From positions 30,393-94,392 of the forward strand of contig JABHCP010000012.1 in the NCBI GenBank assembly GCA_018673485.1: 64,000 bases of DNA. Direction: 5' to 3'. Below, piece by piece: positions 2,060-63,504 of this stretch. The DNA is from Candidatus Uhrbacteria bacterium. Lineage in GTDB: Bacteria > Patescibacteriota > Patescibacteriia > UBA9934. The translations under genes and the position numbers were made by a program. How positions within the stretch are numbered: the first letter of the stretch is position 1; each line of letters starts with the position of its first letter. Under the pieces are notes generated by a model. That model was not told the origin of the DNA. It worked only from the letters and a program-made list of their open reading frames with translations, and did not search any database.

Positions 2060-3682
2060 ATGAATAATATGAATATTAAAAAACAATTCGTAGGTGACGC
2101 AATGTGGATTGCATTGAGTTTAATGGGCATCATGCACGCACTTGCATTTTTTGTGCGTGATACTGGATTCGAGTTGCCGATATTTATTATATTCGGCATT
2201 TTTGTTTTGATAGTTTCCTGGCGATCGCAGTTGAATGGATTACTGATCGCGTTTGCTGAGATCTTTGTAGGTGGTCACGGACATTTGTTAGACATCGAGG
2301 TCCTCGGATTTTCATTATCGATTCGAATGTTAATCTTCGCGATCGTGATGACTGTGTGGTTGATTAAATACGCTCGGATCCCCCTACTTTTCAAGGAGGG
2401 GCCAGGGGTGGTTATTTCTCGTATGATTTTTGTCCGTGATTTACCTTGGCTGGTGCTGATCGTGGCTGTAGCTGTCGGAACACTGATCGGTTTTCTACAA
2501 AATGATCCATCTGCGGCATTCGACGATATGAATGGATATGTGGTGATCGGATATTTATTACCCATACTGACTATCAAGTGGGGTCAAGAAAACAAGAGAA
2601 AGTTACTCCAAGTTTTATTTGCGTCGGTTGTATGGATTATGGGATTCACGGTTGCACTCGCATATGCATTTACTCACATCGACGGTGACAACCTGCACAA
2701 TCTTTACACATTCGTTCGCGATTCAAGATTGGCCGAGGTCACGTTGCAGGTTATTGGATCGGACGTTCCATTTTTGAATCGATTTGAGGGTGATTATTGG
2801 TATCGAATTTTCATGCCAACGCAGACCATTGTCATGTTCGGAATGTTGTTGATGTATGCCTCGGCAATGTATCTCTGGCGAAAAAGCAAAAGCCCGTGGT
2901 TCATGTGGGTTATGTTTGGACTTTCAATTTTGACCATCATATTAAGTTTGTCGCGTAGTTTTATTTTGGGTGCAGTCGCTGGCGGTTTGATTATATTTAT
3001 AACAGCTTGGATGTTTGGAAAGGGGAAGTGGTCGATTGTTGTCAGGACTCTTGGTTCTGTTGTGGTTTCGATCTTCGCGGTCTTGTCGATCATTGCGATT
3101 GTGCAAGTTCCAATACCGCAAAGACCCGACTTGAGTGATGCTGCGTTTTTTGAAACGTCATCAGACACAGGGCGATCCGAGGCGGTAGTAAGTCGCTGGA
3201 ATCTCCTTGATCCGATGATGGATGAGATAATTGAAAGCCCGATTATTGGATCGGGGTTTGGTAAAGAGGTAACGTATACATCAGAAGATCCTAGGATAAT
3301 ATCTGAGCTTGGAAATCAGGGATATACAACTTATAGATTCGAATGGGGATGGCATGATATTTGGCTTAAAATGGGTCTATTAGGGCTTGCGGGCTTCATT
3401 TGGTACATTGTGTCGATTGTGCGTGTTGGGTGGTTTACAATGCAGTCCAAGGGCCACAAATGGCTAGTTATTGGATTGGTCGCCGGGATTGTTGGGCTTT
3501 TCGTAACGCACACGTTCTCACCATATCTAAATCACCCAATCGGACTAAGTCTGATGCTATTTATCATTCCGTTTATTGATTGGGATGGGTTCGCAAAGAA
3601 GCGTAAGGAGGCGTATATAGAGGTTAGAAAAAAGAAACTGATGAAACGACCAGCGACAGTAGTTGCATCAAATATTAAATAA
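2060..3682 (+). CDS. Polytopic integral membrane protein, possibly O-antigen ligase/polymerase-like
   Basis: 540 aa with more than 10 hydrophobic helices, immediately downstream of the glycosyltransferase cluster; assignment is by context only. Confidence 0.4.
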   Translation: MNNMNIKKQFVGDAMWIALSLMGIMHALAFFVRDTGFELPIFIIFGIFVLIVSWRSQLNGLLIAFAEIFVGGHGHLLDIEVLGFSLSIRMLIFAIVMTVWLIKYARIPLLFKEGPGVVISRMIFVRDLPWLVLIVAVAVGTLIGFLQNDPSAAFDDMNGYVVIGYLLPILTIKWGQENKRKLLQVLFASVVWIMGFTVALAYAFTHIDGDNLHNLYTFVRDSRLAEVTLQVIGSDVPFLNRFEGDYWYRIFMPTQTIVMFGMLLMYASAMYLWRKSKSPWFMWVMFGLSILTIILSLSRSFILGAVAGGLIIFITAWMFGKGKWSIVVRTLGSVVVSIFAVLSIIAIVQVPIPQRPDLSDAAFFETSSDTGRSEAVVSRWNLLDPMMDEIIESPIIGSGFGKEVTYTSEDPRIISELGNQGYTTYRFEWGWHDIWLKMGLLGLAGFIWYIVSIVRVGWFTMQSKGHKWLVIGLVAGIVGLFVTHTFSPYLNHPIGLSLMLFIIPFIDWDGFAKKRKEAYIEVRKKKLMKRPATVVASNIK

Positions 3683-3685
3683 ATA

Positions 3686-3714
3686 AAAAGCCAGCTGTTA
3701 ATGCTGGTTTTTGC
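3686..3714 (+). terminator. Rho-independent terminator hairpin (aaaaagccagc-tgttaa-tgctggttttt)
   Basis: GC stem followed by a T-run directly after the stop at 3682. Confidence 0.5.
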
Positions 3715-3768
3715 AAAAAGAAACACCCCAACTAGGTGGGGCGTAACGAATGATGTGTGGGCCGCTAG

Positions 3769-3865
3769 TGGCCACGACTGCTACCGATTCAACGAATTGA
3801 TATCAGCGCTAGTTCACATCGGTCCAAATTTCAGTCTAGGTGACAGGCAGGCCGCTAGTGGCCAC
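3769..3865. repeat. Two direct copies of the 16-mer GGCCGCTAGTGGCCAC (3769-3784 and 3850-3865) at the boundary of a high-GC locus
   Basis: Exact 16-bp direct repeat read from the sequence; a CCCCA-N-TGGGG hairpin lies at 3723-3745. Confidence 0.5.
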
Positions 3866-4457
3866 AGTTCCCATCTGAACCCCGATGTTGTTGGGGTCCA
3901 CAGCGGTAGTTTCCGCTGCTTTCTTGGATTTCTTCAGTCGGATCCGGTTGGACCGACGTGACTTCAAATCCGTAGTGGCTTACCTCTACCAACCTCTTGC
4001 CGCGCCGTTTTTGCCATACGTGCCAGCGGTGAAAGTGGTGCAGGTCTTCTGGATTGTTCATCCAGATGGTGAAGTACCGAATTACCTCTTCGAGGATTTG
4101 TTCCTCATCGAGCTTTTTCGGACTCCAGAACACTAGCAGTAGTTCTCTGCCGGGCGTTCCATTGATCTCGAATGGTCCGAGATCCAGGGTCTCGAGAATT
4201 CCATTCTTCTCTGCTTGGGCGAGGACTGATATTCTCCCATCAGGTCCGCATGTGTAGAGGTAGACCCAACGCTCACTCCTCTTCGAGGACGACACGTGCA
4301 AGGTGAGATCATCTCCCATGACGAGTTGTTCATCGAAATGGAAAGTCAGCCGTTGCTCACCTCGAGTGATTGTACCGGAGACACCAGCAGCGTTTGCTGG
4401 TCTCAAGGGCAGGGCCAGGGTGAGTAGGGCGACGAGCAGGGCGAGGGTGCGCTTCAT
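3855..4457 (-). CDS. Hypothetical secreted protein encoded in a high-GC locus
   Basis: Start at MKRTLALLVALLTLALPLRPANAAG (signal peptide); GC about 58% against a roughly 38% background; hairpin (gggacaatcctgtcc) and AAAGGA precede the ATG. Confidence 0.55.
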   Translation of the reverse strand: MKRTLALLVALLTLALPLRPANAAGVSGTITRGEQRLTFHFDEQLVMGDDLTLHVSSSKRSERWVYLYTCGPDGRISVLAQAEKNGILETLDLGPFEINGTPGRELLLVFWSPKKLDEEQILEEVIRYFTIWMNNPEDLHHFHRWHVWQKRRGKRLVEVSHYGFEVTSVQPDPTEEIQESSGNYRCGPQQHRGSDGNCGH

Positions 4458-4607
4458 GGGGTCCTTTCTTGCTCTGTTGGACAGGATTGTCCCGACTGCA
4501 TTCCAAATAATTGAATTATTTTGCATTTGAAACACAGGCGGGCAGTCGAAGGCGAATCCTTCGACCACGGAGTGGTCCGTTGGGACCTGATAGAGAAGAC
4601 GGCTACA

Positions 4608-5120
4608 TCAGGGGTTGATCTTGTAGACTAGTCCCCAGAAGCCGTTGGTGCGCACCATACCATTGAGGTGATGCGTCAGTCCGATGTGGCTCGGGTTTGC
4701 GACGTGACAGGTGTTGCTCCTGTACGTCTTGTTTCCTTCGTTGCGCAGGGCGGAGACGTTTGATGTCCCTCGCGCCCAGACCACGTGATCCCAGGTCAGG
4801 TCGTAGGTCTCAGGGACTTCGAACATCGGCTGGGCGGTGTAGAACGGGTACCTTTCCAGCCGTTCACCCTTGACGAGCATCGCTCCACGGATGACGTCTC
4901 GGAAGTTGACCGTTTCGTACACTTCTTCGCTGCCAACGAAGAAGGTGGCCTCTGGGTTTTCTGCGTCGAAGCTCAGCACCATGAAGATGCTGTTGGGAGC
5001 CTCGACTTCTTCCTGCGTGCAGGCCAAGGGGCCGCCGGCGTAGGCCGGGTTGGGGTTGGACACCGCGAATGCGGCCATGATGGCCAAGATCGCGAGGACG
5101 ACAGCGTTGGTGCGCTTCAT
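4608..5120 (-). CDS. Hypothetical secreted protein encoded in a high-GC locus
   Basis: MKRTNAVVLAILAIMAAFAVSNPNPAYAGG signal peptide; leader is CCCGCAAAG, hairpin (gacgga cccct ccgtc), GAAGGCG, ATG. Confidence 0.6.
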   Translation of the reverse strand: MKRTNAVVLAILAIMAAFAVSNPNPAYAGGPLACTQEEVEAPNSIFMVLSFDAENPEATFFVGSEEVYETVNFRDVIRGAMLVKGERLERYPFYTAQPMFEVPETYDLTWDHVVWARGTSNVSALRNEGNKTYRSNTCHVANPSHIGLTHHLNGMVRTNGFWGLVYKINP

Positions 5121-5213
5121 CGTAACGCCTTCCGACGGAGGGGTCCGTCTTTGCGGGAATTAATCATCCCACCTGTATTTCAAAATAAATTGTTAAAGAA
5201 AGAGAACGAAAAA

Positions 5214-5241
5214 GAATAGCATAAAAATGCAATTCTGTCAA
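5214..5241 (-). promoter_or_regulatory. Sigma70-like promoter TTGACA-17bp-TATTCT on the minus strand, reading into the high-GC locus
   Basis: Reverse complement of 5213-5241 is ttgacagaattgcatttttatgctattct. Confidence 0.4.
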
Positions 5242-5257
5242 TAGTAATGCGCTAGTT

Positions 5258-6196
5258 TTAGCCTAATATAGTGTTGTTGAGATCCTTATGACCCTGAATG
5301 AACGCTGTAGCTGACATCTTTGAACTATTTTGTGGTTGAAGTTCAAGCACTTCAATTACCTTTGTTTTAGTCCCAATGAATAATCGGTTTTCTTCGATTT
5401 GTGCAAGTCCTGGTGCTAAGCTCTTGTCTGAGATTTGCAGGTCATGAATCTTGATAGTTGTTTTGGTCTCATTGCGCTTCCAGATTGTGAAAACCCCTGG
5501 CCATTCGATTAAAGCTCGGAATTGTGCGTAGATGGCGTCAGCTGGTTGGTTCCAGTTGATCTTGCCATCAGCCTTAGTTAGCATTTTGCAAAATGTTGCT
5601 TGTTCGTGATCTTGTTCTTGCGGCTTAACTTTATCGGCTACATATTTCTTTATCGTATCGATAAGTAGCGGCGCTCCTGTCTTTGCAGCTTTTGCACGCA
5701 GGCTTGTTGATGTTTCATCGTTGCCGATTTTCATTTTTTGTTGCGACAGAATAGGTCCATGGTCCATCTTGTCATCAACTAGCATGATCGAGACCGCTGT
5801 CTCGGATTCTTCGTTTAGTATTGTAGATTGAATTGGTGATGGTCCACGATATTTTGGAAGTAGGGAAGGGTGAACATTTACTGTGCCAAGTTTTGGAATA
5901 TCTAAAACTTCTTGTGGAATGATTTTCCCGTAAGCGATAATTACAAATAGATCAGCTTCGAGCTTCTTGAGTTCTTCAGCGATATTGGATGTTCGAAGAT
6001 TGTCAGGTTGAAAAACTGCAATGTCATTCTCTTGAGAGAAAATTTTTGTCTCAGGTGCTGTCAAAATCTTTTTTCGCCCAACAGGTTTGTCTGGTTGGCA
6101 AACTACTCCTTTAATCGAAAATACCTCATCAGCATGTAATGTAGCGAGGAATTCTTTTGCAAATTCAGGCGTTCCAAAAAAGACTGTTTTGATCAT
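5258..6196 (-). CDS. fmt: Methionyl-tRNA formyltransferase
   Basis: MIKTVFFGTPEFA...VVCQPDKPVGRKK N-terminal formyltransferase motifs; 312 aa. Confidence 0.85.
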   Translation of the reverse strand: MIKTVFFGTPEFAKEFLATLHADEVFSIKGVVCQPDKPVGRKKILTAPETKIFSQENDIAVFQPDNLRTSNIAEELKKLEADLFVIIAYGKIIPQEVLDIPKLGTVNVHPSLLPKYRGPSPIQSTILNEESETAVSIMLVDDKMDHGPILSQQKMKIGNDETSTSLRAKAAKTGAPLLIDTIKKYVADKVKPQEQDHEQATFCKMLTKADGKINWNQPADAIYAQFRALIEWPGVFTIWKRNETKTTIKIHDLQISDKSLAPGLAQIEENRLFIGTKTKVIEVLELQPQNSSKMSATAFIQGHKDLNNTILG

Positions 6197-6272
6197 ATTA
6201 ATTTCGATATTAGCAGATTTTTTGATAAGATTCAATGGTTAAGATCGATATTAAACATTTATATAAAGGTGT

Positions 6273-12119: not shown

Positions 12120-12363
12120 ACTTCTTGTAAGATCAAGCAATTGATCCCTTGCAAACAACTTGAGAGAGCCCTAACTTCTGGGTAAAAGAAGTATCCATCA
12201 ACATCGCTATTGTGGCGTGTTGGTAGAAAGCCGGTTATCTCTCTTAATTAAGAAAGGTAGCCGGTTTTCTTTATAGGTGAGGTAGTCAGACCTGAATAGA
12301 CAATGTCTAAGTAGATCTGACCACCTCGACCACCACCACAAGCCCACCCGGGCTGGAGCCACC

Positions 12364-12444
12364 ATGAACACCATCCTCTCCCTGATCGCCGCCTTCACTT
12401 GCACCGCCGGCCCCGTCGCGCTGATCGCCAGCGTGATGATGTAG
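12364..12444 (+). CDS. Putative 26-aa hydrophobic peptide (MNTILSLIAAFTCTAGPVALIASVMM)
   Basis: Hairpin (agcccacccgggct), GGAGCCACC, ATG; followed by the hairpin cacctgattcgtcaggtg; resembles the signal peptide of the lipoprotein at 12681. Confidence 0.3.
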   Translation: MNTILSLIAAFTCTAGPVALIASVMM

Positions 12445-12680: not shown

Positions 12681-13196
12681 ATGAACATGACCAACATCCT
12701 GCGCGTCGCCCTGTACTCCCTGATCGCCGCCCTGAGCCTGACCACCACCGGTTGCTTCGACCTGTCGAACGCTGGTGTGGACTGCTACTGGGACAGTGAG
12801 TCCGGCGCCCCCATCTGCGATGTGGGTGTGGGTACCGGCTACGGCAGTGGCAGCGGCAGCTACGAAGACACCGTCTGGGTGATGTGGGAGTCCTCCAAGC
12901 CAGAGCGTTTGACGGACTTCACCATGACGTGCACGTTCGATGACCGTGAGAACGAGAAGTTCTCCATCATCGCTGACGTCTATATCACCGACAGTTACTA
13001 CGTGGATGCCTATTTTCCGGGCGTGCCCAGCCACTTCGATGCAGTGTGCAGTGGTATGGCATACTTCAACGGAGTGGAGATCCCGTTGTTCTCCGGTGAG
13101 GTCCCGACCGGCGACGTCCTAGTCGTTCAGTGGGAAGATGAGCAAGTTGACAATTTCTGGGCTCGTAACAACGAGCTGGATATTGACTACAACTAG
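12681..13196 (+). CDS. Hypothetical lipoprotein encoded in a high-GC locus
   Basis: MNMTNILRVALYSLIAALSLTTTGC lipobox-like signal; hairpin (cgccttcgggcg) about 20 nt upstream of the ATG; GC about 58%. Confidence 0.55.
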   Translation: MNMTNILRVALYSLIAALSLTTTGCFDLSNAGVDCYWDSESGAPICDVGVGTGYGSGSGSYEDTVWVMWESSKPERLTDFTMTCTFDDRENEKFSIIADVYITDSYYVDAYFPGVPSHFDAVCSGMAYFNGVEIPLFSGEVPTGDVLVVQWEDEQVDNFWARNNELDIDYN

Positions 13197-13566: not shown

Positions 13567-13575
13567 ATTATATCA
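13567..13575 (-). promoter_or_regulatory. Extended -10 element TGATATAAT upstream of tRNA-Ala
   Basis: Minus strand reads TGATATAAT about 11 nt before the tRNA 5' end, preceded by the perfect palindrome CAGGCTTAGCC-N5-GGCTAAGCCTG (13574-13600). Confidence 0.35.
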
Positions 13576-13639
13576 GGCTTAGCCATTTAGGCTAAGCCTG
13601 ATTGACTAGGTCTGTGAATCTCAGTTTTGTATTTATATG

Positions 13640-14260
13640 ATATAGCAAAGAGCCGCCTGGCAGAGATTGCGAGGAGGCTCAAGGGTGCTCACACCGGCCG
13701 AGTAGGTCATGGCGCACGGCGATCGGTTTGGTGACCGATGTGGGCAGGGCGAACGTGTAGAATATGACCCGTACCAGGCCTTTTCGAAGTCCCACTCCCG
13801 GTTGGGTGTGATTTTTCAAGGCACAGGTCATAAGAGGGTGGCTGCGGAGCGGGTCATGGCCCTCGCTCACACACCTCCACGGCACTTGCAGTACGTCGCA
13901 TCGTTCGATTGCTCCCGGCCCGCACTAATGTTATGGGCTTTGGCGTCGATCGCGTCGTTTGGTAGCGTGGCCTGTTGAGGTGCTTAGGCTGGAGCTCACC
14001 GCTCCGCAGCCTGGTTTGAAAGAGGGGGTTCTCACGCGACGCGCTTCCTCCCTAGTGACTGCTCAGCGTGATTGCTGTGGTGGTACGACAGTTGCCGGAT
14101 CGTCGATCACCCGCCCCGAAAGCCCGGGACTTGCATTTGGACTCTTTCTAACCAAGATTGGTGGCCGTGAAAAGCAGCGTCGACCTGGCAGTCGATACAG
14201 TCCGAATTGCTCGAACCACACTGCGGACGGTCTGTCGCCCTCACGGCCATAGAATGAACT
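13640..14260. other. About 620 bp high-GC segment without a convincing ORF: candidate structured non-coding RNA or decayed foreign cassette
   Basis: GC about 60%, yet only short out-of-phase ORFs of 100 aa or less on either strand; RNase P and tmRNA hallmark motifs were looked for and not found. Confidence 0.3.
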
Positions 14261-14305
14261 TGAGATAATTAAAGCATTGCGCCAGTGAATTGTCAAGAAT
14301 AAGCA

Positions 14306-17803: not shown

Positions 17804-18766
17804 ATGAAACATGAACTATTTAAAATTTCGATAGATGATTTAAACGACGCGGAGCTTGAGACTGAGCTTGTTTCTTTTTTATATTCAAATTCAACAAAAC
17901 TCATTGCGACACCAAATGCCGAGATGCTTGTTGATGCAATTCAGGATAATGGCAACCCCCCTGAATCCCCCCTTGCCCATTCGACAGGCTCAGGGCACCC
18001 TGAGGAATCGAAGGGTGGGAAGAGGGGAGGCGCATTTCGTGATGCGCTTTCGAATACAGATCTGAACTTGCCCGACACAGTCTCGATTCGGTTTGCGGTA
18101 TCTGCTTTGACTGATAATAGACTTAAGAATCGACACACGGGCGTTGATACACTGCAGAGCTTGATAGAACTTTGTGCAAGGGAAGGGAAGAGTGTTTTAT
18201 TCTTTGGAGGAAATGTCGAGACTCTAAAGCTTGCAAAAAAGAAAGTTGAAGGTAGTCTTCCGCAGACCCTCCTTCGTGAGGAGATGGGGCCAGTGATTAC
18301 ATCTACTCAGTATCAAGGAAGAGATAGAGACGGTTTTAGTATTTCGATTCTGGATCCTGGCGCTGTTGAGCTAGTTGACGATGGGGTTGTCATCGAAAGC
18401 TCGATGATGAATAGAATCAACAAAATCAAGCCAGACGTCATTGCGATCGCTTTGCCTCATAAAAAGCAGTTGGCATTCATGCGTCAATTTAAGGATGAGT
18501 TTCCAAGCGTAAAGATTATGATCGGTGTAGGGGGTGCGCTTGATATGATCAGTGGCAGATTAAAAAGGGCGCCAAAATGGATGCGTAGGACTGGCTTGGA
18601 ATGGCTGTGGCGTGTGTTGATAGAACCAAGCAGGATTGGTAGGATTCTAAAGGCGAGCGTTGCCTTTCCCGCACTGGTCACGATTGAAACAATCAAGCGC
18701 GGCAGGTTCATTAAGGCAGTTAAGAACACAGCTCCTGAGATCATTCGGCAGTTGAGTGGAAAGTAG
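17804..18766 (+). CDS. tagA: WecB/TagA/CpsF-family glycosyltransferase carrying an in-frame repeat-derived insertion
   Basis: C-terminal GGALDMISGRLKRAPKWMRRTGLEWLWRVLIEPSRIGR family signature; residues GNPPESPLAHSTGSGHPEESKGGKRGG are encoded by repeat R1 at 17951-18030. Confidence 0.75.
   Translation: MKHELFKISIDDLNDAELETELVSFLYSNSTKLIATPNAEMLVDAIQDNGNPPESPLAHSTGSGHPEESKGGKRGGAFRDALSNTDLNLPDTVSIRFAVSALTDNRLKNRHTGVDTLQSLIELCAREGKSVLFFGGNVETLKLAKKKVEGSLPQTLLREEMGPVITSTQYQGRDRDGFSISILDPGAVELVDDGVVIESSMMNRINKIKPDVIAIALPHKKQLAFMRQFKDEFPSVKIMIGVGGALDMISGRLKRAPKWMRRTGLEWLWRVLIEPSRIGRILKASVAFPALVTIETIKRGRFIKAVKNTAPEIIRQLSGK
17951..18030 (+). repeat. RPE-like palindromic repeat R1 (GGCAACCCCCC...CTCAGGGCACCCTGAG...GGGAAG.GGGAGG), intragenic in-frame copy
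   Basis: Near-identical copies at 18772-18851, 36417-36495 (reverse) and 38839-38920 (reverse). Confidence 0.8.
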
Positions 18767-20482: not shown

Positions 20483-20737
20483 TTGGCTCAGTATCAAGAG
20501 ATCAGAACCGTGGCTGGAACTACCCTCCGCATTGGTGGGGTCGGCGGCAGTTACCTGTCTTTCGTTGAGACCGTGACAGAAGGGAATCTCAACGGACTCA
20601 TTACCAAGGGCTGGGAGCTCATCAAGGTCATCACACATTGCTCGGTCGAACACGACATGACTGCGGTTGCCTACGTCGTCGGCCGACCCCCCGGCGTTGA
20701 CCCTGACGGGGACAAAGCTCAAGGGGTCGAAGAATAA
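20483..20737 (+). CDS. Hypothetical 84-aa protein in a high-GC cassette (TTG start)
   Basis: AAAGGAGGA 7 nt upstream of the TTG start; GC about 58%; product MAQYQEIRTVAGTTLRIGGVGG... with no family recognised. Confidence 0.5.
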   Translation: MAQYQEIRTVAGTTLRIGGVGGSYLSFVETVTEGNLNGLITKGWELIKVITHCSVEHDMTAVAYVVGRPPGVDPDGDKAQGVEE

Positions 20738-20873: not shown

Positions 20874-20911
20874 GGCAACCCTCTCCAGCTCCCCCCTGGG
20901 AAGGGGGAGGG
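20874..20911 (+). repeat. Short form of repeat R1 (GGCAACC-N-CTCCCCC-loop-GGGGGAGGG hairpin), which supplies the GGAGG ribosome-binding site of the next gene
   Basis: ggcaaccctctccagctcccccctgggaagggggaggg, then tagaact-ATG. Confidence 0.7.
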
Positions 20912-23846: not shown

Positions 23847-23954
23847 TCCCCCTCCTTCCCAAGGAGGGGTTAGGGGTGGTTGCCGTTTGATCTAATTCGA
23901 TCGAATTCAGTTCACCGGCAACCCCCTCCAGCTCCCCCTTGGGAAGTGGGAGGG
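23847..23954. repeat. Inverted pair of short R1 elements (23847-23884 reverse, 23917-23954 forward) flanking a 32-bp spacer that contains the AATTCGATCGAATT palindrome
   Basis: Read on the minus strand, the left copy supplies GGAGGGGG 8 nt upstream of the ftsQ-like ATG. Confidence 0.7.
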
Positions 23955-29270: not shown

Positions 29271-30068
29271 TTAAATCCATCCCATATTTTTATACCGTTC
29301 TTCTTGTTTATCTGGGTCCCATGATATCCAACCATCGATTATCTTTTTTGTGTGTGACTTTTTGATGAGAGGTATGGCCATTGTGCCAAATTCAGTAATA
29401 GCGCAATGTTCAACCTCTTCAGGCAGAAGGCCGTTTGGTGACATGAAGAATGTAAAAAGATATTCTCCAATAAGGAAATAATAGATAGTACCATCTCTTC
29501 TTGATTTATGCTTTTGTGGTTGCATTATGACATCATCGAGGTGTTTATATCCATTTAATTTATATATTACGCATGGAAAATCGTCACTTTTCAGTTCAAT
29601 CTCACCATTTAAATATCCCCTGAATTTTTTTTCGTGCAGTCCGAGTTCTATGTCTTTGTATTCATTTTTTATGGATATATTCATTTTCCATAAAATGGAA
29701 ATCAAAAAACTTTTGAATTTATTGTAATCAACTTTTATATTTCTAATGTTTTCGAACTTGAAATTTTCATATTGATTCATAAGTTCATAGTTGCCGGTCA
29801 AATCTTCTTTAGCTGGGTATAGCAATTTTTTTGCATAAGCTTCGAATTTTCCTATCCGACCCTCACATGTATCGCAGAGAATATGATTATCAAAAATACC
29901 AGTTTGTACTGTGCGTAGTCTATTTCTGGTTCTTGCGTTGAAGTGTAGCATTTTGTAATTTTCATCCAGCGCATGAATTTTATACAAAAAATTTGGAATG
30001 ATATGCGATTTATATACAAGCATCTTGGTCACAAGACAAAGTTTGCATTCCCCCATTTTCATCTTCAT
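29271..30068 (-). CDS. Hypothetical AT-rich protein with two CxxC pairs, translationally coupled to pbp2
   Basis: 265 aa, CKLC...CDTC; the start overlaps the pbp2 stop by 4 nt; GC visibly lower than its neighbours. Confidence 0.5.
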   Translation of the reverse strand: MKMKMGECKLCLVTKMLVYKSHIIPNFLYKIHALDENYKMLHFNARTRNRLRTVQTGIFDNHILCDTCEGRIGKFEAYAKKLLYPAKEDLTGNYELMNQYENFKFENIRNIKVDYNKFKSFLISILWKMNISIKNEYKDIELGLHEKKFRGYLNGEIELKSDDFPCVIYKLNGYKHLDDVIMQPQKHKSRRDGTIYYFLIGEYLFTFFMSPNGLLPEEVEHCAITEFGTMAIPLIKKSHTKKIIDGWISWDPDKQEERYKNMGWI

Positions 30069-35852: not shown

Positions 35853-38828
35853 TTAAAACGAGCTGTCTTCGCAGATGTCTTTGAAGTCGCAGTATTGGCA
35901 GTGGAATCCGGGGGTTGGGCTGAAGTCACTGGCTTGCATCTTCTCTACTGCTTTAATTACTTCATCGATTAGTTTTTGCTTTTCTTTATCTGTTGGTTCA
36001 AAACTCACTGAAGAGTTGTCTTCCAGATAGTGGTAGGTTGCTTTCGTGATCTTGAGTGGTGGATCGAAACACCGTTCACACGCTAGCGCATAAAGCACGA
36101 GTTGCTTGCGTTCAGGCCAGCTGAGCTTATCCTTTGGTTTTCCAGTTTTATAGTCTACGATCTCATATCCATCATCTAGCTTATCGATCCGATCGATTCT
36201 TCCCTTGGTGGAGATGTCACCAATTTTGAGGGTGAAGTCCTTTTCGATGAATGCGATCTTTGGTTTTGTTTCGGTAAGAATATGGTAGTACTCAGACATC
36301 GTGTCCTTACCCTTTTGATGATACTCAACACGTGTCTCAGCGTCAGGATACCACTCATCAATCCAAGCGCTTTCATAAAGCTCAAGTAATCGACTCTCTG
36401 GCGGAATCTCATCTAATCCTCCCTCCTTCCCACCCTTCGATTCCTCAGGGTGCCCTGAGCTTGTCGAATGGGCAAGGGGGGATAGAGGGGGGTTGCCTTC
36501 CACATACTCACGGGCGAATTGTTCGAGTGCGTTGTGCATTGTCTTACCAAAACTCATTTGATAGCGACCAAACACAGGTACGCGCAAGATGTGGGCATAT
36601 TTGTATTGTAATGGACAGCTTGAGAATGCAGCAATCTGCGTGAAGCTGATGTTGCTCGGTAGCTGATGGTCTACTGTAGCTTTCTCATCGATTGGATCGG
36701 CCTGAGGCTCAAGCGATTTGTTTTGACCAGAATCTTGCGCTTCAATCTCAAGTTCTTTAACAAACCGTGATGGTTTGCGTTTGCGGGTACCACCATAGTC
36801 GTCAGCTGAGAAAAGATAGAGATGTTCTTTGGCTCGAGTCATGGCAACATAGAGCAGTCGTCGTTCTTCCTCGATATGTTCATCACGATCTGCGTCGATT
36901 TGAGTGTTGATGAGTCCCTCTGGAATTCCGATTGGACTACTGCGACGTTGTGTTGGGAATCGTTGCTCAACCATGTTTACTAAAAAGACGAATCGAAATT
37001 CTAATCCCTTTGATGCGTGAATAGTCATTATCTGAACCACGTCAGGGCCAGCGGTTGGATCCCCTGAGAGCGCACCGGATTCGCCACTTGATCGCTCATG
37101 TTCGAATTCTTCTAAAAAGTGATGAAGAGTTTTGTCGTCATTTGAATATTCAAAGCGCTTAACGCGTTCAAAGAACTTTTGCAAAAGTCCGTTCTCTTCA
37201 ATTTGTTGTGGTTCTGGCAGTTGCTGTGCCGTGGCGATGATCCCAGTTTGTTTTACGATCTCTACAAATAATTCACTACTTGGTTTTCGTTTTGATAGAG
37301 CCCGCAGTTCTGTCAGCGCTTCGATTATCTCGGTGATTCTTTCGCGACTTGCATCAGATATATCATCGGTTTGCTCTAAAACTTCAAAAAGCGAGAGGCC
37401 CTTCTTTTTACTGTGCATTGAAAGCTTGGCAATGTCGATTTCTGAAATTCCAAGCTCTGGATGGCTTAGAATTCTGTAAATCGAAGGACTGTCATACGGG
37501 AGGTCAATTACGCGCATCCAAGCCAAGCAATCAAGTATTACCGGCTTTGTGTATAGCCCTGAGAGGGCCAGGAAGCGGTATGGCATGCGAATCTGGTCCA
37601 TGATCTCTACAAATGGCTCAGCATGCGAATTTGCGCGAACTAGAATGGCAAAGTCACTCCAATTGCACTCGTGTTCTTTTTGCAGATCAACAATTCTTGA
37701 GATTACTCCATGAAGCTCACTTTGCAGATCATCGGCATGGATATGGTCGACTTTCCCCTCTATTCCAAGGTTTGGCAACAGCTCCTTATTGATTTGCTCG
37801 CGATGTTCAAGTCTGTGTGGATTATTGTTCTGGATTACGTTATACGCGTGGTGCAATACTTTTTCTGAGCTTCTGTAGTTTTGATTGAGAACAATCTGCT
37901 TTGCGTCTGAAAAGTCTTTTGAGAAATTCAAGATATTGGAAAGTGATGCTCCGCGGAATTTGTAAATTGATTGATCGTCGTCCCCCACTACCGTGATATT
38001 GAAAGGTTCTTTAAGCAAGAGTTTGATGAGTTCGTATTGTGCAGAGTTAGTATCCTGAAATTCATCAACAAGCACGAACTTAAATTGTTCCTGATACTGC
38101 CTAGCAATCCGAGGACGCGATCGAAGAAGCTCAATCGTATAACTAACAAGATCTGCAAAATCAAGCGCACTATTTTCAAGCAAGATTTGTTGGTAGGTGT
38201 GATACGCATTAGCGAGCTCATTGATACGCGCATTTTCCTGCTCTTGTTCTTCCGGACTAATCTCATCTCCCTCCTTCCCAAGGGGGGATTCAGGGGGGTT
38301 GCCGTCATTCAAATCAAGATCCTCAGCAAATTTCAAATACTGCTCTGGCGTGATCATCTCATCTTTAATTCGTGAGAAGTGCTGCAAGAGCGCGCGGATA
38401 AACTTAGTTGGATTTGATTTTGGTTTGTAGTAATCAAGTTCAAAACGATCAAAGTTTTTCCTGATCAATAAGTAGGTATCAATCTCATCGAGAAGCGTAA
38501 ATTCATGCGGCACGCCAATATCAAGCGCATGCTGGCGCAAAATCCGCTCACAAAATGCATGAAAGGTTGAGATCCACATGTCCACGTAGCCGATTGGGAG
38601 TAATTGATCGACTCGCTCTTCCATCTCCGTTGCCGCTTTCTCTGTAAAAGTGAGTGCCAAAATCTCCTCAGGCTTCGCCTTCCCCTGCTCAATCAACCAG
38701 GCAATCCGCTGCGTTATAGCAGTAGTCTTCCCAGTCCCCGCCCCCGCAATAATCATAAGCGGCCCCCGATCATGCGTAACAGCCTCCAACTGCGCCTCAT
38801 TTAGATTTTCGAGTAGGTTTTGATTCAT
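35853..38828 (-). CDS. UvrD/PcrA-family helicase fused to a C-terminal PD-(D/E)XK Cas4/AddB-like nuclease with a 4-Cys cluster; carries two in-frame repeat-derived insertions
   Basis: Walker A IIAGAGTGKTTAI; C-terminal CPLQYKY...DRIDKLDDGYEIVDYKTGK...CQYCDFKDIC; encoded peptides GNPPLSPLAHSTSSGHPEESKGGKEGG and GNPPESPLGKEGDE come from repeat R1. Confidence 0.8.
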   Translation of the reverse strand: MNQNLLENLNEAQLEAVTHDRGPLMIIAGAGTGKTTAITQRIAWLIEQGKAKPEEILALTFTEKAATEMEERVDQLLPIGYVDMWISTFHAFCERILRQHALDIGVPHEFTLLDEIDTYLLIRKNFDRFELDYYKPKSNPTKFIRALLQHFSRIKDEMITPEQYLKFAEDLDLNDGNPPESPLGKEGDEISPEEQEQENARINELANAYHTYQQILLENSALDFADLVSYTIELLRSRPRIARQYQEQFKFVLVDEFQDTNSAQYELIKLLLKEPFNITVVGDDDQSIYKFRGASLSNILNFSKDFSDAKQIVLNQNYRSSEKVLHHAYNVIQNNNPHRLEHREQINKELLPNLGIEGKVDHIHADDLQSELHGVISRIVDLQKEHECNWSDFAILVRANSHAEPFVEIMDQIRMPYRFLALSGLYTKPVILDCLAWMRVIDLPYDSPSIYRILSHPELGISEIDIAKLSMHSKKKGLSLFEVLEQTDDISDASRERITEIIEALTELRALSKRKPSSELFVEIVKQTGIIATAQQLPEPQQIEENGLLQKFFERVKRFEYSNDDKTLHHFLEEFEHERSSGESGALSGDPTAGPDVVQIMTIHASKGLEFRFVFLVNMVEQRFPTQRRSSPIGIPEGLINTQIDADRDEHIEEERRLLYVAMTRAKEHLYLFSADDYGGTRKRKPSRFVKELEIEAQDSGQNKSLEPQADPIDEKATVDHQLPSNISFTQIAAFSSCPLQYKYAHILRVPVFGRYQMSFGKTMHNALEQFAREYVEGNPPLSPLAHSTSSGHPEESKGGKEGGLDEIPPESRLLELYESAWIDEWYPDAETRVEYHQKGKDTMSEYYHILTETKPKIAFIEKDFTLKIGDISTKGRIDRIDKLDDGYEIVDYKTGKPKDKLSWPERKQLVLYALACERCFDPPLKITKATYHYLEDNSSVSFEPTDKEKQKLIDEVIKAVEKMQASDFSPTPGFHCQYCDFKDICEDSSF
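36417..36495 (-). repeat. Repeat R1, in-frame intragenic copy (reverse orientation on the window plus strand)
   Basis: Its reverse complement is nearly identical to 17951-18030. Confidence 0.8.
38268..38304 (-). repeat. Short form of R1 (termini only), in-frame intragenic copy
   Basis: Reverse complement is ggcaacccccctgaatccccccttgggaaggaggg. Confidence 0.7.
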
Positions 38829-38838
38829 ATGCTTATAT

Positions 38839-38920
38839 CCTCCCCCTTCCCACCCATCGATATAACTCAGGGTGCCCTGAGCGGAGTCGAATGGGCAAGG
38901 GGGAGTTAGAGGGGGTTGCC
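38839..38920 (-). repeat. Repeat R1, intergenic copy that supplies the GGAGG ribosome-binding site of the helicase gene
   Basis: Minus strand reads ...gggaagggggaggatataagcat-ATG. Confidence 0.8.
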
Positions 38921-38962: not shown

Positions 38963-38991
38963 ATTGACAAAAGGCCTTTTTAATGATAGAT
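38963..38991 (+). promoter_or_regulatory. Sigma70-like promoter TTGACA-17bp-TAGATT for high-GC cassette A
   Basis: ttgacaaaaggcctttttaatgatagatt. Confidence 0.45.
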
Positions 38992-39057
38992 TTAATCGTC
39001 TTCCAGATACCAACTCGCCCGCAAGGGCATGGGCTTAAAGCCCGAAGGAGGCGTAAG

Positions 39058-39729
39058 ATGCCTCAGTGTACCCCCGAAGGTGCGATCGATCTCGTGGACT
39101 TTATTGGCCACACTCACAAGATGCTCGGTCTCATCGACCCAGTCGGGTTGCCCGAGACCGCCTCGCGTATCGATGACGTTGCACATATCCTGGCTGAGAA
39201 CGGCTGGGAGAATGTGACAGAGATGTTCGAGCGTGCTGTCTTGGATCCAAGTGTGCGTCCGATCGCGCATAATATCGAGATGATGAATACGCACATCGGC
39301 CACAATGGCTACAGTGGCACCTACATGCGGTTGACCAGCGGTGATGGCCGATTCCGTGTGGTGATCGCTCCAAGTGACGTATGTGGTATCGAGACCGGAC
39401 AATGGTGGCTCGCTACTGTGACCATGTACGATGTGTCGGGTCCCTCCAGGTCGGCTGCCGCGTACGCTCACTGTTTCGGCGCCCACTACTGGTACGGCCC
39501 TACACCGCATCAGGTCCGTTGCGAAGCCAATCCTGGTTGCATGGCGATGAAGCTTGAGATCTCGCCGTGGCATACCGATGTGGTCATAGGTAGTGAGGGG
39601 CTCTTCGACCGATTGCGCTCCGACAACTATGGCCGCGAGATTCGCATCATGGCCCGCTGTCTCGGCCGCAACCACTTCGCTCGCAACGGGCCGAATTTCG
39701 ACTTCCTCAGGAATATCGAGTTCGAGTAG
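39058..39729 (+). CDS. Hypothetical protein, high-GC cassette paralogue A (224 aa)
   Basis: Leader is CCCGCAAGG, hairpin (gggcttaaagccc), GAAGGAGGCG, ATG; paralogous to 39930-40577 (shared YMRLTSGDGRFRV / YLRIDSADGRIRV and PHQVRCEANPG / PHQVHCEPNPG). Confidence 0.55.
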   Translation: MPQCTPEGAIDLVDFIGHTHKMLGLIDPVGLPETASRIDDVAHILAENGWENVTEMFERAVLDPSVRPIAHNIEMMNTHIGHNGYSGTYMRLTSGDGRFRVVIAPSDVCGIETGQWWLATVTMYDVSGPSRSAAAYAHCFGAHYWYGPTPHQVRCEANPGCMAMKLEISPWHTDVVIGSEGLFDRLRSDNYGREIRIMARCLGRNHFARNGPNFDFLRNIEFE

Positions 39730-39824
39730 TGATCGCGACTCGCCCCCCCCCGTACGTCTCGAACCCCCACCTCGTGGGGGTTCTTCGTTTTCAGCAAAAA
39801 CATTGCTAATTCTGGCCAAAAGCC

Positions 39825-39853
39825 TTGACAAAAGGGCTTTTTTCTGCTATTGT
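39825..39853 (+). promoter_or_regulatory. Sigma70-like promoter TTGACA-17bp-TATTGT for cassette B (a duplicated copy of the cassette A promoter context)
   Basis: ttgacaaaagggcttttttctgctattgt. Confidence 0.45.
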
Positions 39854-39929
39854 TAGCAGTTCAAAAAGAACACCTGTGTGTGAAACTTCGCCCGTAAGGG
39901 TATGGGCCTAAAGCCCAAAGGAGGCTGTA

Positions 39930-40577
39930 ATGCCTCAGACCGAAGAAAGTCAGGAGTGCATGGGCGTGAGCGAGTTCGTCAACGCTGTTCACATCATGCT
40001 CGCTCTCCCCAAGCTCGATCTGCCTGAGGACGCCAAGAGCGTCGGTGAGATCCAGGAGGTCCTGCTGGAGAACGGCTGGATGGATATCGCGAAACGCCTC
40101 CGACTCACCGTACGTAAGCACGGTGAGTCGGAGCCCGACTACCGGGGTCCGTACCTGCGTATCGACAGCGCCGATGGGCGTATCCGCGTCACGATCAGTG
40201 ACCGGTGCCCTCGCCCGGAAACCAATGACTGGCAGAGGTGGTACGGTGATGTGATGCTGTTCGATATCTCCGACAGCCACCCGTGGCGCCATGATGACCA
40301 GATCCGCAAGTTCGGTTGTCACATGTGGCAGGACGGCCAGCACCCTCACCAGGTCCACTGCGAGCCCAACCCGGGCCAGCGGATCATGTACCTGAGCTTC
40401 TGGCCCAGTAACGTCGTGGCCGTGCCCGACCATGATGTGCAGGATCACTTCAAGTGGGCCCGCTTCCGCAGTCAGTGGGGGCTCTACATGGACCGAATTG
40501 TGAACGTTGTGGGTGAGTACTTCAACGAAGGTGACTCCTACACCGAGGCGTTCCTGAAGTGCACCTCGGTCGAGTAG
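39930..40577 (+). CDS. Hypothetical protein, high-GC cassette paralogue B (215 aa)
   Basis: Leader is CCCGTAAGG, hairpin (gggcctaaagccc), AAAGGAGGC, ATG; followed by hairpin gaacccccacctcgtgggggttc, the same hairpin found after paralogue A. Confidence 0.55.
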   Translation: MPQTEESQECMGVSEFVNAVHIMLALPKLDLPEDAKSVGEIQEVLLENGWMDIAKRLRLTVRKHGESEPDYRGPYLRIDSADGRIRVTISDRCPRPETNDWQRWYGDVMLFDISDSHPWRHDDQIRKFGCHMWQDGQHPHQVHCEPNPGQRIMYLSFWPSNVVAVPDHDVQDHFKWARFRSQWGLYMDRIVNVVGEYFNEGDSYTEAFLKCTSVE

Positions 40578-40636
40578 CTTGCCTCTGACCGATCTTATCT
40601 TGAACCCCCACCTCGTGGGGGTTCTGTGCATCCAAA

Positions 40637-51783: not shown

Positions 51784-51857
51784 TGGCGCCGATGGCAGGA
51801 ATTGAACCTGCGACCCCCTGCTCGACGGCAGGTGCTCTATCACTGAGCTACATCGGC
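51784..51857 (-). tRNA. tRNA-Asp(GUC)-like gene with an apparent 6-nt anticodon loop
   Basis: Acceptor GCCGATG/CATCGGC, D arm GCTC/GAGC, T arm GCAGG-TTCAATT-CCTGC, discriminator G, CCA encoded; anticodon stem CCTGC/GCAGG encloses CGTCGA. Confidence 0.55.
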
Positions 51858-51871
51858 TAAGGAGTGAGAAA

Positions 51872-51984
51872 TGGCTCTGGGGGCTGGATTTGAACCAACG
51901 ACTTCCTGCGTGATGGTAGGTGAACTAACCAGTTGTTCTACCGGCTTGGCAAACAGGCGAGCTAACCAACTGCTCTACCCCAGA
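51872..51984 (-). tRNA. 113-nt tRNA-like gene: canonical acceptor, D and T arms, with about 36 extra nt in the anticodon region (candidate tRNA-Gly(GCC) carrying an insertion or intron, or a disrupted tRNA)
   Basis: 5' TCTGGGG-TA-GAGC-AGTTGGTTA-GCTC-G-CCTGT-TTGCCA[36 nt]C-GCAGG-AAGTC-GTTGG-TTCAAAT-CCAGC-CCCCAGA-G-CCA; removing 51911-51946 gives a 77-nt cloverleaf with loop UUGCCAC. Confidence 0.45.
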
Positions 51985-52080
51985 TCACGAATATGATAAT
52001 ATATAACGCAAAAGTACATGTCAAGAAAACAGCACTTACGTGCTGTTTTTTTAGTGTAGTTCCAATAGGTCTTATAAGAC

Positions 52081-62409: not shown

Positions 62410-62541
62410 TGCCACATTGTACACAAATGAAGCGCAAGAAGGCACGGGCGATTGAAGCCGATAAACGTGTTGTAGCTGCAAGAAAGCGACGAAGAGCTAA
62501 GGCGATTCGTTTGTCAAAGGCAGAAGACGCTGCAAAATAAA
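62410..62541 (+). CDS. Putative 43-aa highly basic peptide (MPHCTQMKRKKARAIEADKRVVAARKRRRAKAIRLSKAEDAAK)
   Basis: Not in the supplied ORF track because it is under 60 aa; followed by the same terminator sequence as the next gene. Confidence 0.3.
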
Positions 62542-62544
62542 AAT

Positions 62545-62576
62545 ACCCTTTCGATTCGTTCGAGAGGGTGTTTTTT
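62545..62576 (+). terminator. Terminator accctttcgattcgttcgagagggtg then TTTTTT (copy 1 of 2)
   Basis: Near-identical to 63344-63375. Confidence 0.6.
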
Positions 62577-63322: not shown

Positions 63323-63343
63323 ATTTCACGTAAAATAAAAGTA

Positions 63344-63375
63344 CCCTTTCGATTCGTTCGAGAGGGTGTTTTTTT
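63344..63375 (+). terminator. Terminator accctttcgattcgttcgagagggtg then TTTTTTT (copy 2 of 2)
   Basis: Duplicate of the 62545 terminator. Confidence 0.6.
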
Positions 63376-63389
63376 ATACATAGATTGGA

Positions 63390-63418
63390 TTGACATATTG
63401 TACTGAGGTTGCTAATCT
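63390..63418 (+). promoter_or_regulatory. Sigma70-like promoter TTGACA-17bp-TAATCT upstream of a high-GC H+-PPase gene
   Basis: ttgacatattgtactgaggttgctaatct. Confidence 0.45.
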
Positions 63419-63504
63419 TTCCGCGCCTTTCGCAGAAATGAAGCGGAGGGGGAATGAACCCATGAATGTCTAACCTTCCTGGTAGACAAGAGGAGAAGTA
63501 CGTT

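Follow-up and report, generated by a model that had tools for sequence, protein, structure and literature searches.

Unit C, a two-gene transcription unit on the minus strand of a Candidatus Uhrbacteria (CPR/Patescibacteria) chromosome, is probably an islet that is self-contained, was gained by horizontal transfer, and carries orphan genes for proteins predicted to be secreted; we hold this interpretation with moderate confidence. The unit spans 5241-3713 of the window, i.e., the whole stretch of 64,000 nucleotides that was analyzed, and comprises a promoter, a leader, two open reading frames (C1 and C2) and an intrinsic terminator. Its composition sets it apart from the flanking genes, and its terminator ties it to two other units of high G+C content in the same window.

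Organization of unit C

Unit C occupies the intergenic gap between the 3' end of fmt and a convergent Wzy_C (O-antigen-ligase-like) gene; its neighbors are fmt, an NTPase, def, priA and Wzy_C. The sigma-70-type promoter, TTGACA-17-TATTCT (5213..5241, minus strand), has an extended -10 element (TGC) and begins 17 nt past the fmt stop codon. This near-consensus promoter, which the first-pass annotation had already placed upstream of the unit and which is indeed present at 5241-5213, would start a single bicistronic mRNA. The 5' UTR is about 85 nt long (5121..5206, minus strand). Its first half is AT-rich (30% GC) and is followed by the hairpin GACGGACCCCUCCGUC (5149-5134, minus strand), which lies directly before the ribosome-binding site of C1, GGAAGG (5133-5128, minus strand); the leader sequence before the C1 ATG is as originally quoted, hairpin included. 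This stable hairpin would probably protect or insulate the 5' end of the mRNA. The fold of the 5' UTR has a z-score of only -1.4. A scan of the whole window with Rfam 15 at gathering thresholds returned tRNAs only, and no riboswitch or leader family; an E-value scan of 3600-5300 gave matches at chance level only. In a possible upstream ORF of 16 codons (5167-5117), the TGA stop codon and the C1 ATG overlap.

C1 and C2 are separated by a highly structured intergenic spacer of 150 nt (4458..4607, minus strand), which contains four hairpins and has a minimum free energy of -54.2 kcal/mol (z = -5.3; none of 200 shuffles was equally stable). One of its elements, ACGGACCACTCCGT (4580-4567, minus strand), is a near-copy of the leader hairpin, and a patch at 4490-4542 is less GC-rich (40% GC). 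A promoter and terminator scan of the spacer called no canonical site. Because neither a canonical terminator nor a canonical promoter is called there, we read C1 and C2 as one transcript, that is, as genes that would be co-transcribed.

The 3' end of the unit contains the repeats that had earlier been taken to bound the locus. The 16-mer GTGGCCACTAGCGGCC occurs in exactly two copies, one overlapping the C2 stop codon (3850..3865, minus strand) and one 90 bp downstream, in the 3' UTR (3760..3775, minus strand), with 74 nt of 46% GC between them. The two direct copies are therefore real, but both are at the 3' end; the pair is a local duplication or an insertion scar and no locus boundary. Of the CCCCA...TGGGG hairpins proposed as additional bounds, only that at 3744-3723, which belongs to the terminator, marks a boundary; that at about 3899-3875 lies inside the C2 coding sequence. 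The intrinsic terminator (3713..3744, minus strand) has an 8-bp stem, ACGCCCCA/TGGGGTGT, and a loop, CCTAGT, followed by TTTCTTTTT; this G+C-rich hairpin with its U-tract would end transcription. A second hairpin from the terminator scan, CCAGC-N7-GCTGG (3691..3707), is flanked by A and T runs and probably serves the Wzy_C gene (2060-3682, plus strand) as its native bidirectional terminator. Unit C sits just inside it, and this neighbor's terminator would act as backup.

C1 and C2 are orphan proteins with predicted Sec signal peptides

Gene C1 (4608..5120, minus strand; locus tag HN358_00770) encodes an orphan of 170 amino acids, and gene C2 (3855..4457, minus strand) one of 200. On direct reading, the N-terminus of C1, MKRTNAVVLAILAIMAAFAVSNPNPAYA followed by GG, is a Sec signal peptide comprising residues 1-28 (5120-5037, minus strand), with cleavage between AYA and GG; the mature protein would have 142 amino acids, including two cysteines. 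The N-terminus of C2, MKRTLALLVALLTLALPLRPANA followed by AG, likewise reads as a Sec signal peptide, of residues 1-23 (4457-4389, minus strand), with cleavage between ANA and AG. The open frame of C2 extends to a GTG at 4568; the signal peptide is opened by the ATG at 4457, which is preceded by the ribosome-binding site AAAGGA.

Signal peptides of the Sec/signal peptidase I type have a positive n-region, an h-region of 10-15 residues, and small residues at -3 and -1. C1 and C2 fit this pattern, each with a charged n-region, a hydrophobic h-region, an AxA motif and no lipobox cysteine. Their maximal Kyte-Doolittle scores over 12 residues are 3.07 and 2.96, respectively, compared with 0.9-1.7 in the non-exported cassette proteins. 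The signal peptides attributed to both minus-strand genes in the first-pass annotation thus show the classic features in sequence and in hydropathy, and we predict that both proteins, with signal peptides of the signal-peptidase-I type, leave the cytoplasm through the Sec pathway and reach the cell surface or the medium. We speculate that the likeliest role of these lineage-restricted orphans is in the envelope or in the interaction with a partner cell, a role that would be expected of an episymbiont's secreted proteins when these are small and evolve fast.

For C1, a search of 5.8 × 10⁹ clusters and a full HMMER scan of 1.84 × 10⁹ representatives retrieved the self-match only; no match was found in Pfam, PHROGs, NCBIfam, PADLOC or the PDB, and the AlphaFold2 model has a pLDDT of 31. 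For C2, too, the self-match was the only one among the 5.8 × 10⁹ clusters. A low-confidence model predicts a mature protein with a beta-rich N-terminal half followed by helices. In this beta-rich half C2 bears a weak resemblance to DUF4384, a secreted or lipoprotein-associated beta domain: there is a weak alignment of residues 47-79 to the first part of the Pfam profile (13.3 bits, E = 0.094, positions 4-34 of 81). We rejected membership of this family, as the score is far under the gathering cutoff of 27 bits and has no structural corroboration.

Unit C belongs to a class of high-GC genes

The GC content of unit C is 54%, compared with 40-43% in the flanking genes. The GC3 values of C1 and C2 are 0.80 and 0.60, respectively, against 0.31-0.46 in native genes, and both ORFs show strong, consistent codon-phase periodicity. 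Unit C is self-contained and, as had been claimed, compositionally foreign. It is not alone in this respect. Seven high-GC genes of the window (C1, C2, A, B, D, F and G) correlate with one another in codon usage (r = 0.16-0.75), whereas their correlation with nine native genes is negative or nil (r up to 0.07). That is, the seven form one non-native codon-usage class. At least six high-GC3 units, each with its own consensus promoter, cover about 8.6% of the window.

The members of this class differ in cargo. Export signals are found in three of the seven genes (C1, C2 and the lipoprotein D) and in none of A, B and F, so that the earlier description of the class as export-targeted cargo does not hold as a general rule. 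Gene G (GC3 0.81) encodes a membrane H+-pyrophosphatase, whose best retrieved relatives are non-CPR and at most 65% identical. Contigs L114 and L116 at first seemed to show the site of the pyrophosphatase unit empty, but their DNA is identical and only the gene calling differs. C1, C2, A, B, D and F have no significant match in Pfam, NCBIfam or PADLOC. For C1 and C2, homology to high-GC phyla such as Actinobacteria was not detectable, as neither protein has a detectable homologue anywhere. Since neither C1 nor C2 has a donor or a homologue, it is composition that points to their foreign origin.

Unit C and the other high-GC units probably stem from one source, as yet unsampled, which would have had a GC content of about 60%. 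C1 and C2 may be two separate acquisitions and not one operon, given their GC3 values of 0.80 and 0.60 and the less GC-rich patch between them. If the unit had recently been transferred en bloc from a GC-rich donor, neither the AT-richness of the unconstrained UTR parts nor a promoter matching the recipient's consensus would be predicted.

Unit C shares its terminator, but not its leader, with units A and B

Units A and B are arranged in tandem on the plus strand, at 39-40 kb. Unit A (38964..39792) has the promoter TTGACA-17-TAGATT and encodes a 223-aa orphan with no signal peptide (ORF 39058-39729), for which the search of 5.8 × 10⁹ clusters retrieved the self-match only. Its leader folds into the hairpins GCCC-GCAA-GGGC and GGGCU-UAA-AGCCC, adjoining AAGGAGG, and the palindrome GAACCCCCACCTCGTGGGGGTTC lies at its 3' end (39761-39783, plus strand). 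Unit B (39825..40624) encodes a paralogue of the A protein with 34% amino-acid identity and saturated synonymous sites; its -35/spacer block and leader are about 90% conserved relative to A. B carries a 23-nt palindrome identical to that of A (40602-40624, plus strand), and keeps it although a separate canonical terminator comes after. Both genes retain a GC3 of 0.69-0.80 despite the synonymous saturation, which fits divergence in the donor and would be paradoxical had they been duplicated in this genome.

The first-pass annotation had described the C1 leader as the same motif as the leaders of these two cassettes. Local alignment of the C leader with those of A and B against dinucleotide shuffles gave p = 0.27 and p = 0.98, respectively, and an alignment anchored at the ATG, with the ribosome-binding site fixed, gave p of about 0.5; the leaders are no more alike than expected by chance. 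When a covariance model built on the leaders of A and B was searched through the entire window without filters, it recovered A (71.8 bits) and B (69.7 bits) with E of about 10⁻¹⁹, but reported nothing at E ≤ 10 at the leader of unit C (5121-5170, minus strand). Nor is the promoter a shared signature, contrary to the same annotation. Perfect TTGACA-N17-TAnnnT sites number nine in the window, where 0.67 are expected, and six of them drive high-GC units; a perfect consensus promoter also drives the native units at 52024, 29257 and 28592, tRNA and greA-like units among them. The sequence common to C and the 39-40 kb cassettes is thus a generic sigma-70 consensus that native genes carry too.

The terminators gave a different result. 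The sequence CCCCACCTNGTKGGGG occurs in the window only at 3726-3741 (minus strand), 39765-39780 (plus strand) and 40606-40621 (plus strand), where 0.04 occurrences are expected; all three sites are 3' ends of units, on the coding strand and with a T-rich tail. Over 37 nt the terminators of C and A are 81% identical (score 38, against a null of 14.4 ± 2.1; p < 0.0005), and the comparison of C with B gave p = 0.004. D and F have no match to this module, and G is marginal (p = 0.0135). The palindrome, of 22-23 nt, is GAACCCCCAC-CTC-GTGGGGGTTC in A and B and ACGCCCCA-CCTAGT-TGGGGTGT in C. On these alignments, the 3' hairpins of cassettes A and B have their homologue in the terminator of C. The homologous terminator module and the common codon-usage class make a shared source plausible; of the shared origin or mobilization proposed at first, the former is retained, and no mobilization device was found.

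Alternative explanations for the high-GC units

An alternative is that unit C is one of a type of mobile cassette, with a common promoter, leader, ribosome-binding site and flanking repeats, a shared means of mobilization, and export cargo. The 3' palindromic module common to A, B and C argues for such an element, as do the ends of the tandem A and B in an identical 23-nt palindrome, formally like an array of 3' recombination sites, and the six of nine perfect consensus promoters that drive high-GC units. Almost every other component fails. The leader similarity is that of chance, the promoter is generic, the 16-mers do not flank unit C, the palindrome is at no 5' boundary, the module is absent from D and F, and export signals are confined to three of the seven cargo genes. 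The genes called in the window and in about 14 kb of additional flank include no integrase, transposase or RAYT-like (REP-associated transposase) gene. No repeats, inverted or direct, consistently bracket the high-GC units, and no att-like repeats or target-site duplications were seen. Phage and plasmid records, searched with blastn and tblastn, gave no match; IMG/VR viral contigs gave nothing for the proteins or for the leader and terminator patterns; and the leader pattern had no match in 185,579 species genomes, a set that is without the source genome itself. We therefore consider this explanation unlikely. One inverted-repeat pair (15 of 17 positions) encloses C1, is at about chance level by estimate, and has no counterpart at the other units. 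Integration at tRNA genes was also rejected. Unit C has no adjoining tRNA gene, and its sole direct repeat is within the 3' UTR; unit D adjoins tRNA-Ala, but no tRNA-derived repeat was found there.

Two classes of known elements resemble the 3' palindrome. Integron gene cassettes consist of an ORF and a 3' palindromic attC site and form tandem arrays. The tandem A and B, each ending in the same 3' element, an imperfect or perfect palindrome of which that in C is a diverged copy, recall this arrangement. In contrast to attC, however, the element is far shorter and has no RYYYAAC/GTTRRRY cores (GTT is followed by CTT or CTG). We rejected the integron reading on account of the missing core sites, the absence of intI and attI from the window and its sampled flanks, and the promoters that the units carry themselves. 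REP/REPIN-type extragenic palindromes double as 3' hairpins, are present in many copies between the genes of a genome, and are accompanied by a RAYT transposase. The likeness here is a short G+C-rich palindrome repeated 3' of unrelated genes and conserved beyond what terminator function alone needs. In the 64 kb of the window and about 14 kb of flank there are three copies, all in high-GC units, and no RAYT-like gene was seen.

The units could instead be remnants of the kind of phage morons, i.e., promoter-gene-terminator modules left by a decayed virus or plasmid of the lineage. Phage morons are autonomous modules of this structure, of deviant composition, inserted between phage genes. Unit C is like them in its own strong promoter and terminator, its deviant composition, and an orphan cargo not needed by the neighbors, and mobile gene pools typically hold small orphan secreted proteins. 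Unlike morons, it sits in a cellular chromosome among housekeeping genes, and no phage genes or phage-family matches were found. A PHROGs scan of C1, C2, A, B and D gave no match for any of the five, phage records and IMG/VR contigs held no relatives, and no phage structural or integration genes are found near any high-GC unit. The units are dispersed singly among housekeeping genes, and the class includes a cellular-type H+-pyrophosphatase, G. On balance, such an ancestry seems improbable.

In another reading, the high-GC units are autonomous expression cassettes of an undescribed kind, each with a consensus promoter, a structured leader adjoining the ribosome-binding site, orphan cargo and a conserved palindrome at its 3' end, in which the palindrome GAACCCCCACCTCGTGGGGGTTC and its variants would be a recombination, uptake or protein-binding site, such that cassettes are captured or exchanged via the palindrome in CPR genomes without conventional mobile-element genes. 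A function beyond termination would fit the 100% conservation of the palindrome between A and B despite the synonymous saturation of their coding sequences, its retention in B before a separate canonical terminator, and the presence of a diverged copy behind the unrelated cargo of C. Were the palindrome a site of capture or exchange, its importance would be much greater; the present evidence does not support that, and we regard the reading as quite doubtful.

Still less probable is that the genes are native and long resident, with a high GC3 that is upheld in situ, whether through selection for the structure or stability of the mRNA or through biased conversion, and with the conserved leader and terminator as the regulatory signature of these genes. 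This would account for the tandem A and B, which are synonymously saturated and still have a GC3 of 0.69-0.80, and for their -35/spacer block, leader and terminator, which are 90-100% identical; the unconstrained parts of the UTRs are AT-rich as in the host, the promoters fit the host consensus, and even the conserved H+-pyrophosphatase yielded no donor. But no known mechanism holds GC3 at about 0.8 in a few genes of a genome in which it is 0.32-0.46 elsewhere, ATP synthase subunits included, the absence of homologues from other CPR genomes is against old vertical inheritance, and, among the relatives retrieved for the pyrophosphatase, the best come from outside CPR.

Lastly, the view that unit C is an artefact, with chimeric or contaminant DNA and ORFs that are chance open frames in GC-rich sequence, is effectively refuted: long spurious ORFs do arise on several frames of GC-rich DNA (e.g., 4785-5219, plus strand), but six metagenome contigs, obtained with different assemblers and from different samples, agree with the window at 99.9-100% identity, one of them (L002, 100% identity) crosses both junctions of unit C, codon-phase GC is strong and frame-consistent (GC1/GC2/GC3 of 0.56/0.43/0.80 in C1), and all signals are correctly placed, from the promoter and the ribosome-binding site through the signal peptides to the terminator. 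Since the junctions are reproduced in independent assemblies, unit C is not chimeric. A search for fmt in metagenomes retrieved only the same strain (100%) or relatives at most 44% identical, which are too distant for an empty site or synteny to be read from them.

Horizontal transfer in Patescibacteria

The interpretation of unit C as an acquired islet is consistent with the horizontal transfer already reported for Patescibacteria, in whose genomes up to 13% of the length is horizontally transferred (PMC12455944). As in those islands, short blocks of deviant composition lie here among housekeeping genes, no mobility genes are needed, and the load of about 8.6% is within the reported range. 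In contrast to them, the cargo here is all orphan, which leaves no donor-recipient pair to name; every block is, in addition, one fully equipped transcription unit, and three of them share a terminator module.

CPR bacteria, whose genomes are tiny, live in dependence on other cells, and gained genes and displayed or secreted proteins are central to how they attach to and exploit their partners. To this list unit C adds two orphan proteins that are predicted to be exported. Recognizing such units, which have foreign composition and promoters of their own and make up about 8.6% of the segment, helps annotation and the choice of candidates for expression studies.

Organization of the two-gene unit

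The minus-strand segment 5241-3713 constitutes a complete transcription unit (unit C) with two genes, C1 and C2. Its promoter, TTGACA-17-TATTCT with an extended -10 TG (5241-5213), lies 16 nt past the stop codon of fmt (5258-6235). The leader of ~85 nt has 30% GC in its first half; its second half includes the hairpin GACGGACCCCUCCGUC (5149-5134), immediately 5' of GGAAGG and the ATG at 5120. C1 (4608-5120, 170 aa) and C2 (3855-4457, 200 aa) are separated by a 150-nt spacer whose folding is well above that of shuffles (z = -5.3), and the 130-nt 3' UTR terminates in an 8-bp G+C-rich hairpin and U-tract (3744-3713). Just past this terminator, a second hairpin (3691-3707) probably serves the convergent Wzy_C gene (2060-3682). 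Two further features are near chance level: a 15/17 inverted repeat around C1 (5184-5168 and 4542-4526), exactly at the AT/GC composition boundaries, and a possible 16-codon upstream ORF (5167-5117) whose TGA overlaps the C1 start (ATGA).

In the first-pass annotation, direct 16-mers bounded this locus. The exact repeat exists, yet the 3' UTR holds both copies (3760-3775 and 3850-3865), 90 bp apart with a 74-nt spacer of 46% GC between them; they mark a local duplication or scar rather than the limits of an element.

Six contigs from different assemblies and samples match the window at 99.9-100% identity, and the metagenome contig L002, 100% identical, covers both junctions of unit C; the unit is not an assembly artefact. 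The NCBI contig record is JABGPN010000006.1 (assembly GCA_018644925.1). The rest of the window is a normal-looking CPR chromosome, with fmt, def, priA, clpB, gltX, mreB-region genes, ATP synthase and PBP2.

Based on their strong codon-phase GC (GC1/GC2/GC3 of 0.56/0.43/0.80 for C1 and 0.61/0.41/0.60 for C2), both genes are taken as coding. As read from sequence, the N-termini follow the signal-peptidase-I pattern, i.e., MKRT, a hydrophobic core, and AYA|G or ANA|A, with hydropathy maxima of ~3.0. NCBI lists HN358_00770 (C1) and HN358_00925 as proteins of a Candidatus Uhrbacteria bacterium. Nothing except self-matches was found for C1, C2 or gene A of the 39-40 kb cassettes among 5.8e9 clusters, and for C1 a complete HMMER search against 1.84e9 representatives likewise returned C1 alone. 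The resemblance of C2 to DUF4384 is sub-threshold.

A class of high-GC genes

GC3 is 0.31-0.46 in native genes, versus 0.60-0.81 in seven genes of the window: C1, C2, A (39058-39729), B (39930-40577), D (12681-13196, a lipoprotein), F (20483-20737) and G (63505 onwards, the start of an H+-pyrophosphatase). Relative synonymous codon usage correlates among these seven (r 0.16-0.75) and among nine native genes, whereas between the two sets the correlation is negative or absent (r up to 0.07). Together with one GC-rich non-coding stretch, the high-GC units account for ~8.6% of the window, inside the range that PMC12455944 reports for horizontal transfer in Patescibacteria (at most 13% of genome length). 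Contrary to the proposal, the class is not specific for exported cargo: export signals are confined to C1, C2 and D, being absent from A, B and F; G is a polytopic membrane enzyme.

Relationship to the 39-40 kb cassettes

Promoter and leader had been read as signs of kinship between unit C and these cassettes; neither holds. The motif TTGACA-N17-TAnnnT occurs at 9 sites in the window, against 0.67 expected. Six drive high-GC units; because the other three belong to native units (one at the tRNA pair, 52024, and two around 28.6-29.3 kb), the motif is a general strong-promoter consensus. The unit C spacer matches that of B at 12/17 positions and a native promoter about as well (10/17). That is, the promoter shows the autonomy of each unit, not relatedness between units. 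The A and B leaders are obviously homologous (~90% identity, two hairpins abutting AAGGAGG). Against dinucleotide shuffles, local alignment of the C1 leader to them gives p=0.27 and p=0.98, and alignment anchored at the ATG while the ribosome-binding site is held in place gives p ~0.5. With filters off across the whole window, a covariance model built from the A and B leaders matched A and B only. The C1 leader thus stands apart from these two, the outcome that the first-pass annotation had itself named as refuting its reading. The CCCGCAA heptamer common to the leaders is the chance expectation for such lengths, and what is left, a stable hairpin immediately preceding the ribosome-binding site that F and D also have, is a loose likeness of design.

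The real link is the terminator, as judged from sequence comparison. CCCCACCTNGTKGGGG is found behind C, A and B only, against 0.04 expected in the window, and similarity between C and A continues into the tail, spanning 37 nt (81% identity, score 38 versus a null of 14.4+-2.1, p<0.0005). The D and F terminators are unrelated; G is marginal (p=0.0135).

A and B are paralogous tandem units (38964-40624) with a 23-nt 3' palindrome conserved at 90-100%. Their proteins share 34% identity and synonymous sites are saturated (31/64 codons identical versus 29 expected). Nevertheless, the -35/spacer block TTGACAAAAGGSCTTTTT, which includes the palindrome AAAGGCCTTT, the leader, the first three codons and a 28-nt block at the 3' palindrome are 90-100% identical, amid unalignable sequence. 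These elements are thus under strong constraint, and their conservation despite saturation suggests that an operator-like site is present and that the leader RNA is functional. Most simply, the pair diverged before arrival here and entered as one block.

Origin of the high-GC units

Three observations do not agree with a simple recent en-bloc transfer: UTR parts free of constraint are AT-rich, the promoters look like those of the host, and B retains its palindrome even though its U-tract is poor and another, canonical terminator lies downstream. The same observations keep alive, at low probability, a role of the palindrome beyond termination. Unit C is best classified as a self-contained operon, gained by horizontal transfer, that encodes two orphan predicted secreted proteins in a CPR genome. 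Of the earlier proposal of foreign cargo with a common origin or mobilisation, the foreign composition stands and a common source of the high-GC units is probable; the mobilisation mechanism does not stand. No integrase or transposase is among the genes of the window, and searches of phage, plasmid and viral collections gave no match. A close relative of this genome did not turn up, its fmt relatives being <=44% identical, so an empty site is not demonstrable.

Because C1, C2 and A lack homologues, the proposed test for actinobacterial origin has no prospect of success, and naming a donor is impossible. The sole class member with homologues is G, which among the best 80 loci is <=65% identical to sequences from Myxococcota, Rhodothermia, Gemmatimonadota and Bacteroidota, with no CPR genome among those loci; the source thus appears to be unsampled. 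Complete G (63390-64000; contig L113 10855-13060) encodes a 709-aa membrane H+-pyrophosphatase with 63.5% GC, GC3 0.81 and its own consensus promoter; it is probably an energy-coupling gene that this CPR genome gained by horizontal transfer.

Additional features of the window

A 43-nt direct repeat (97.7% identical; 62534-62576 and 63332-63374) surrounds an orphan gene (62651-63322); its second copy forms the terminator immediately ahead of the pyrophosphatase promoter.

In the segment 12091-12275, the unit D promoter is followed by a ~150-nt AT-rich leader, which precedes the GC-rich genes. The leader, which matches nothing in Rfam and closes with a terminator-like hairpin (12225-12270), may be an attenuator, riboswitch-like leader or small RNA. 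Upstream of lipoprotein D, a 26-codon hydrophobic mini-ORF, MNTILSLIAAFTCTAG... (12364-12444), resembles a partly duplicated 5' end of the D gene, because the exact 16-mer CTCCCTGATCGCCGCC is common to it and the D signal-peptide coding region.

Between the clpB terminator and tRNA-Ala, ~650 nt of 58% GC (13575-14262, minus strand) show no convincing coding phase and no Rfam match, fold above shuffles (z = -3.9, 20 shuffles) and are preceded by TTGACA-17-TTTAAT (~14296-14268, minus strand); this stretch represents an unknown structured RNA or else a high-GC cassette that has decayed.

The G/C-rich palindromic repeat CCCTCCCC...GGGAAGGGGGAGG (7 matches, 0.66 expected) resembles a MITE-like element. 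Five sites lie just upstream of native genes (20898-20910, 23848-23860, 23941-23953, 38839-38851, 38894-38906), and it seemingly forms an in-frame insert, peptide GNPPESPLAHSTGSGHPEESKGGK, in ORFs 17804-18766 and 35853-38828, a WecG-family glycosyltransferase and a UvrD-like helicase.

Two adjacent tRNA genes (51784-51984) are unusual: for one (51784-51857) ARAGORN assigns no anticodon, and the other (51875-51984), missed by ARAGORN, is called at 110 nt by Rfam, which suggests a possible intron. Finally, a 265-aa minus-strand ORF (29271-30068) with unusually low GC (33%, GC3 0.32) and no Pfam match may be an AT-rich foreign gene, a compositional outlier opposite to the high-GC units.
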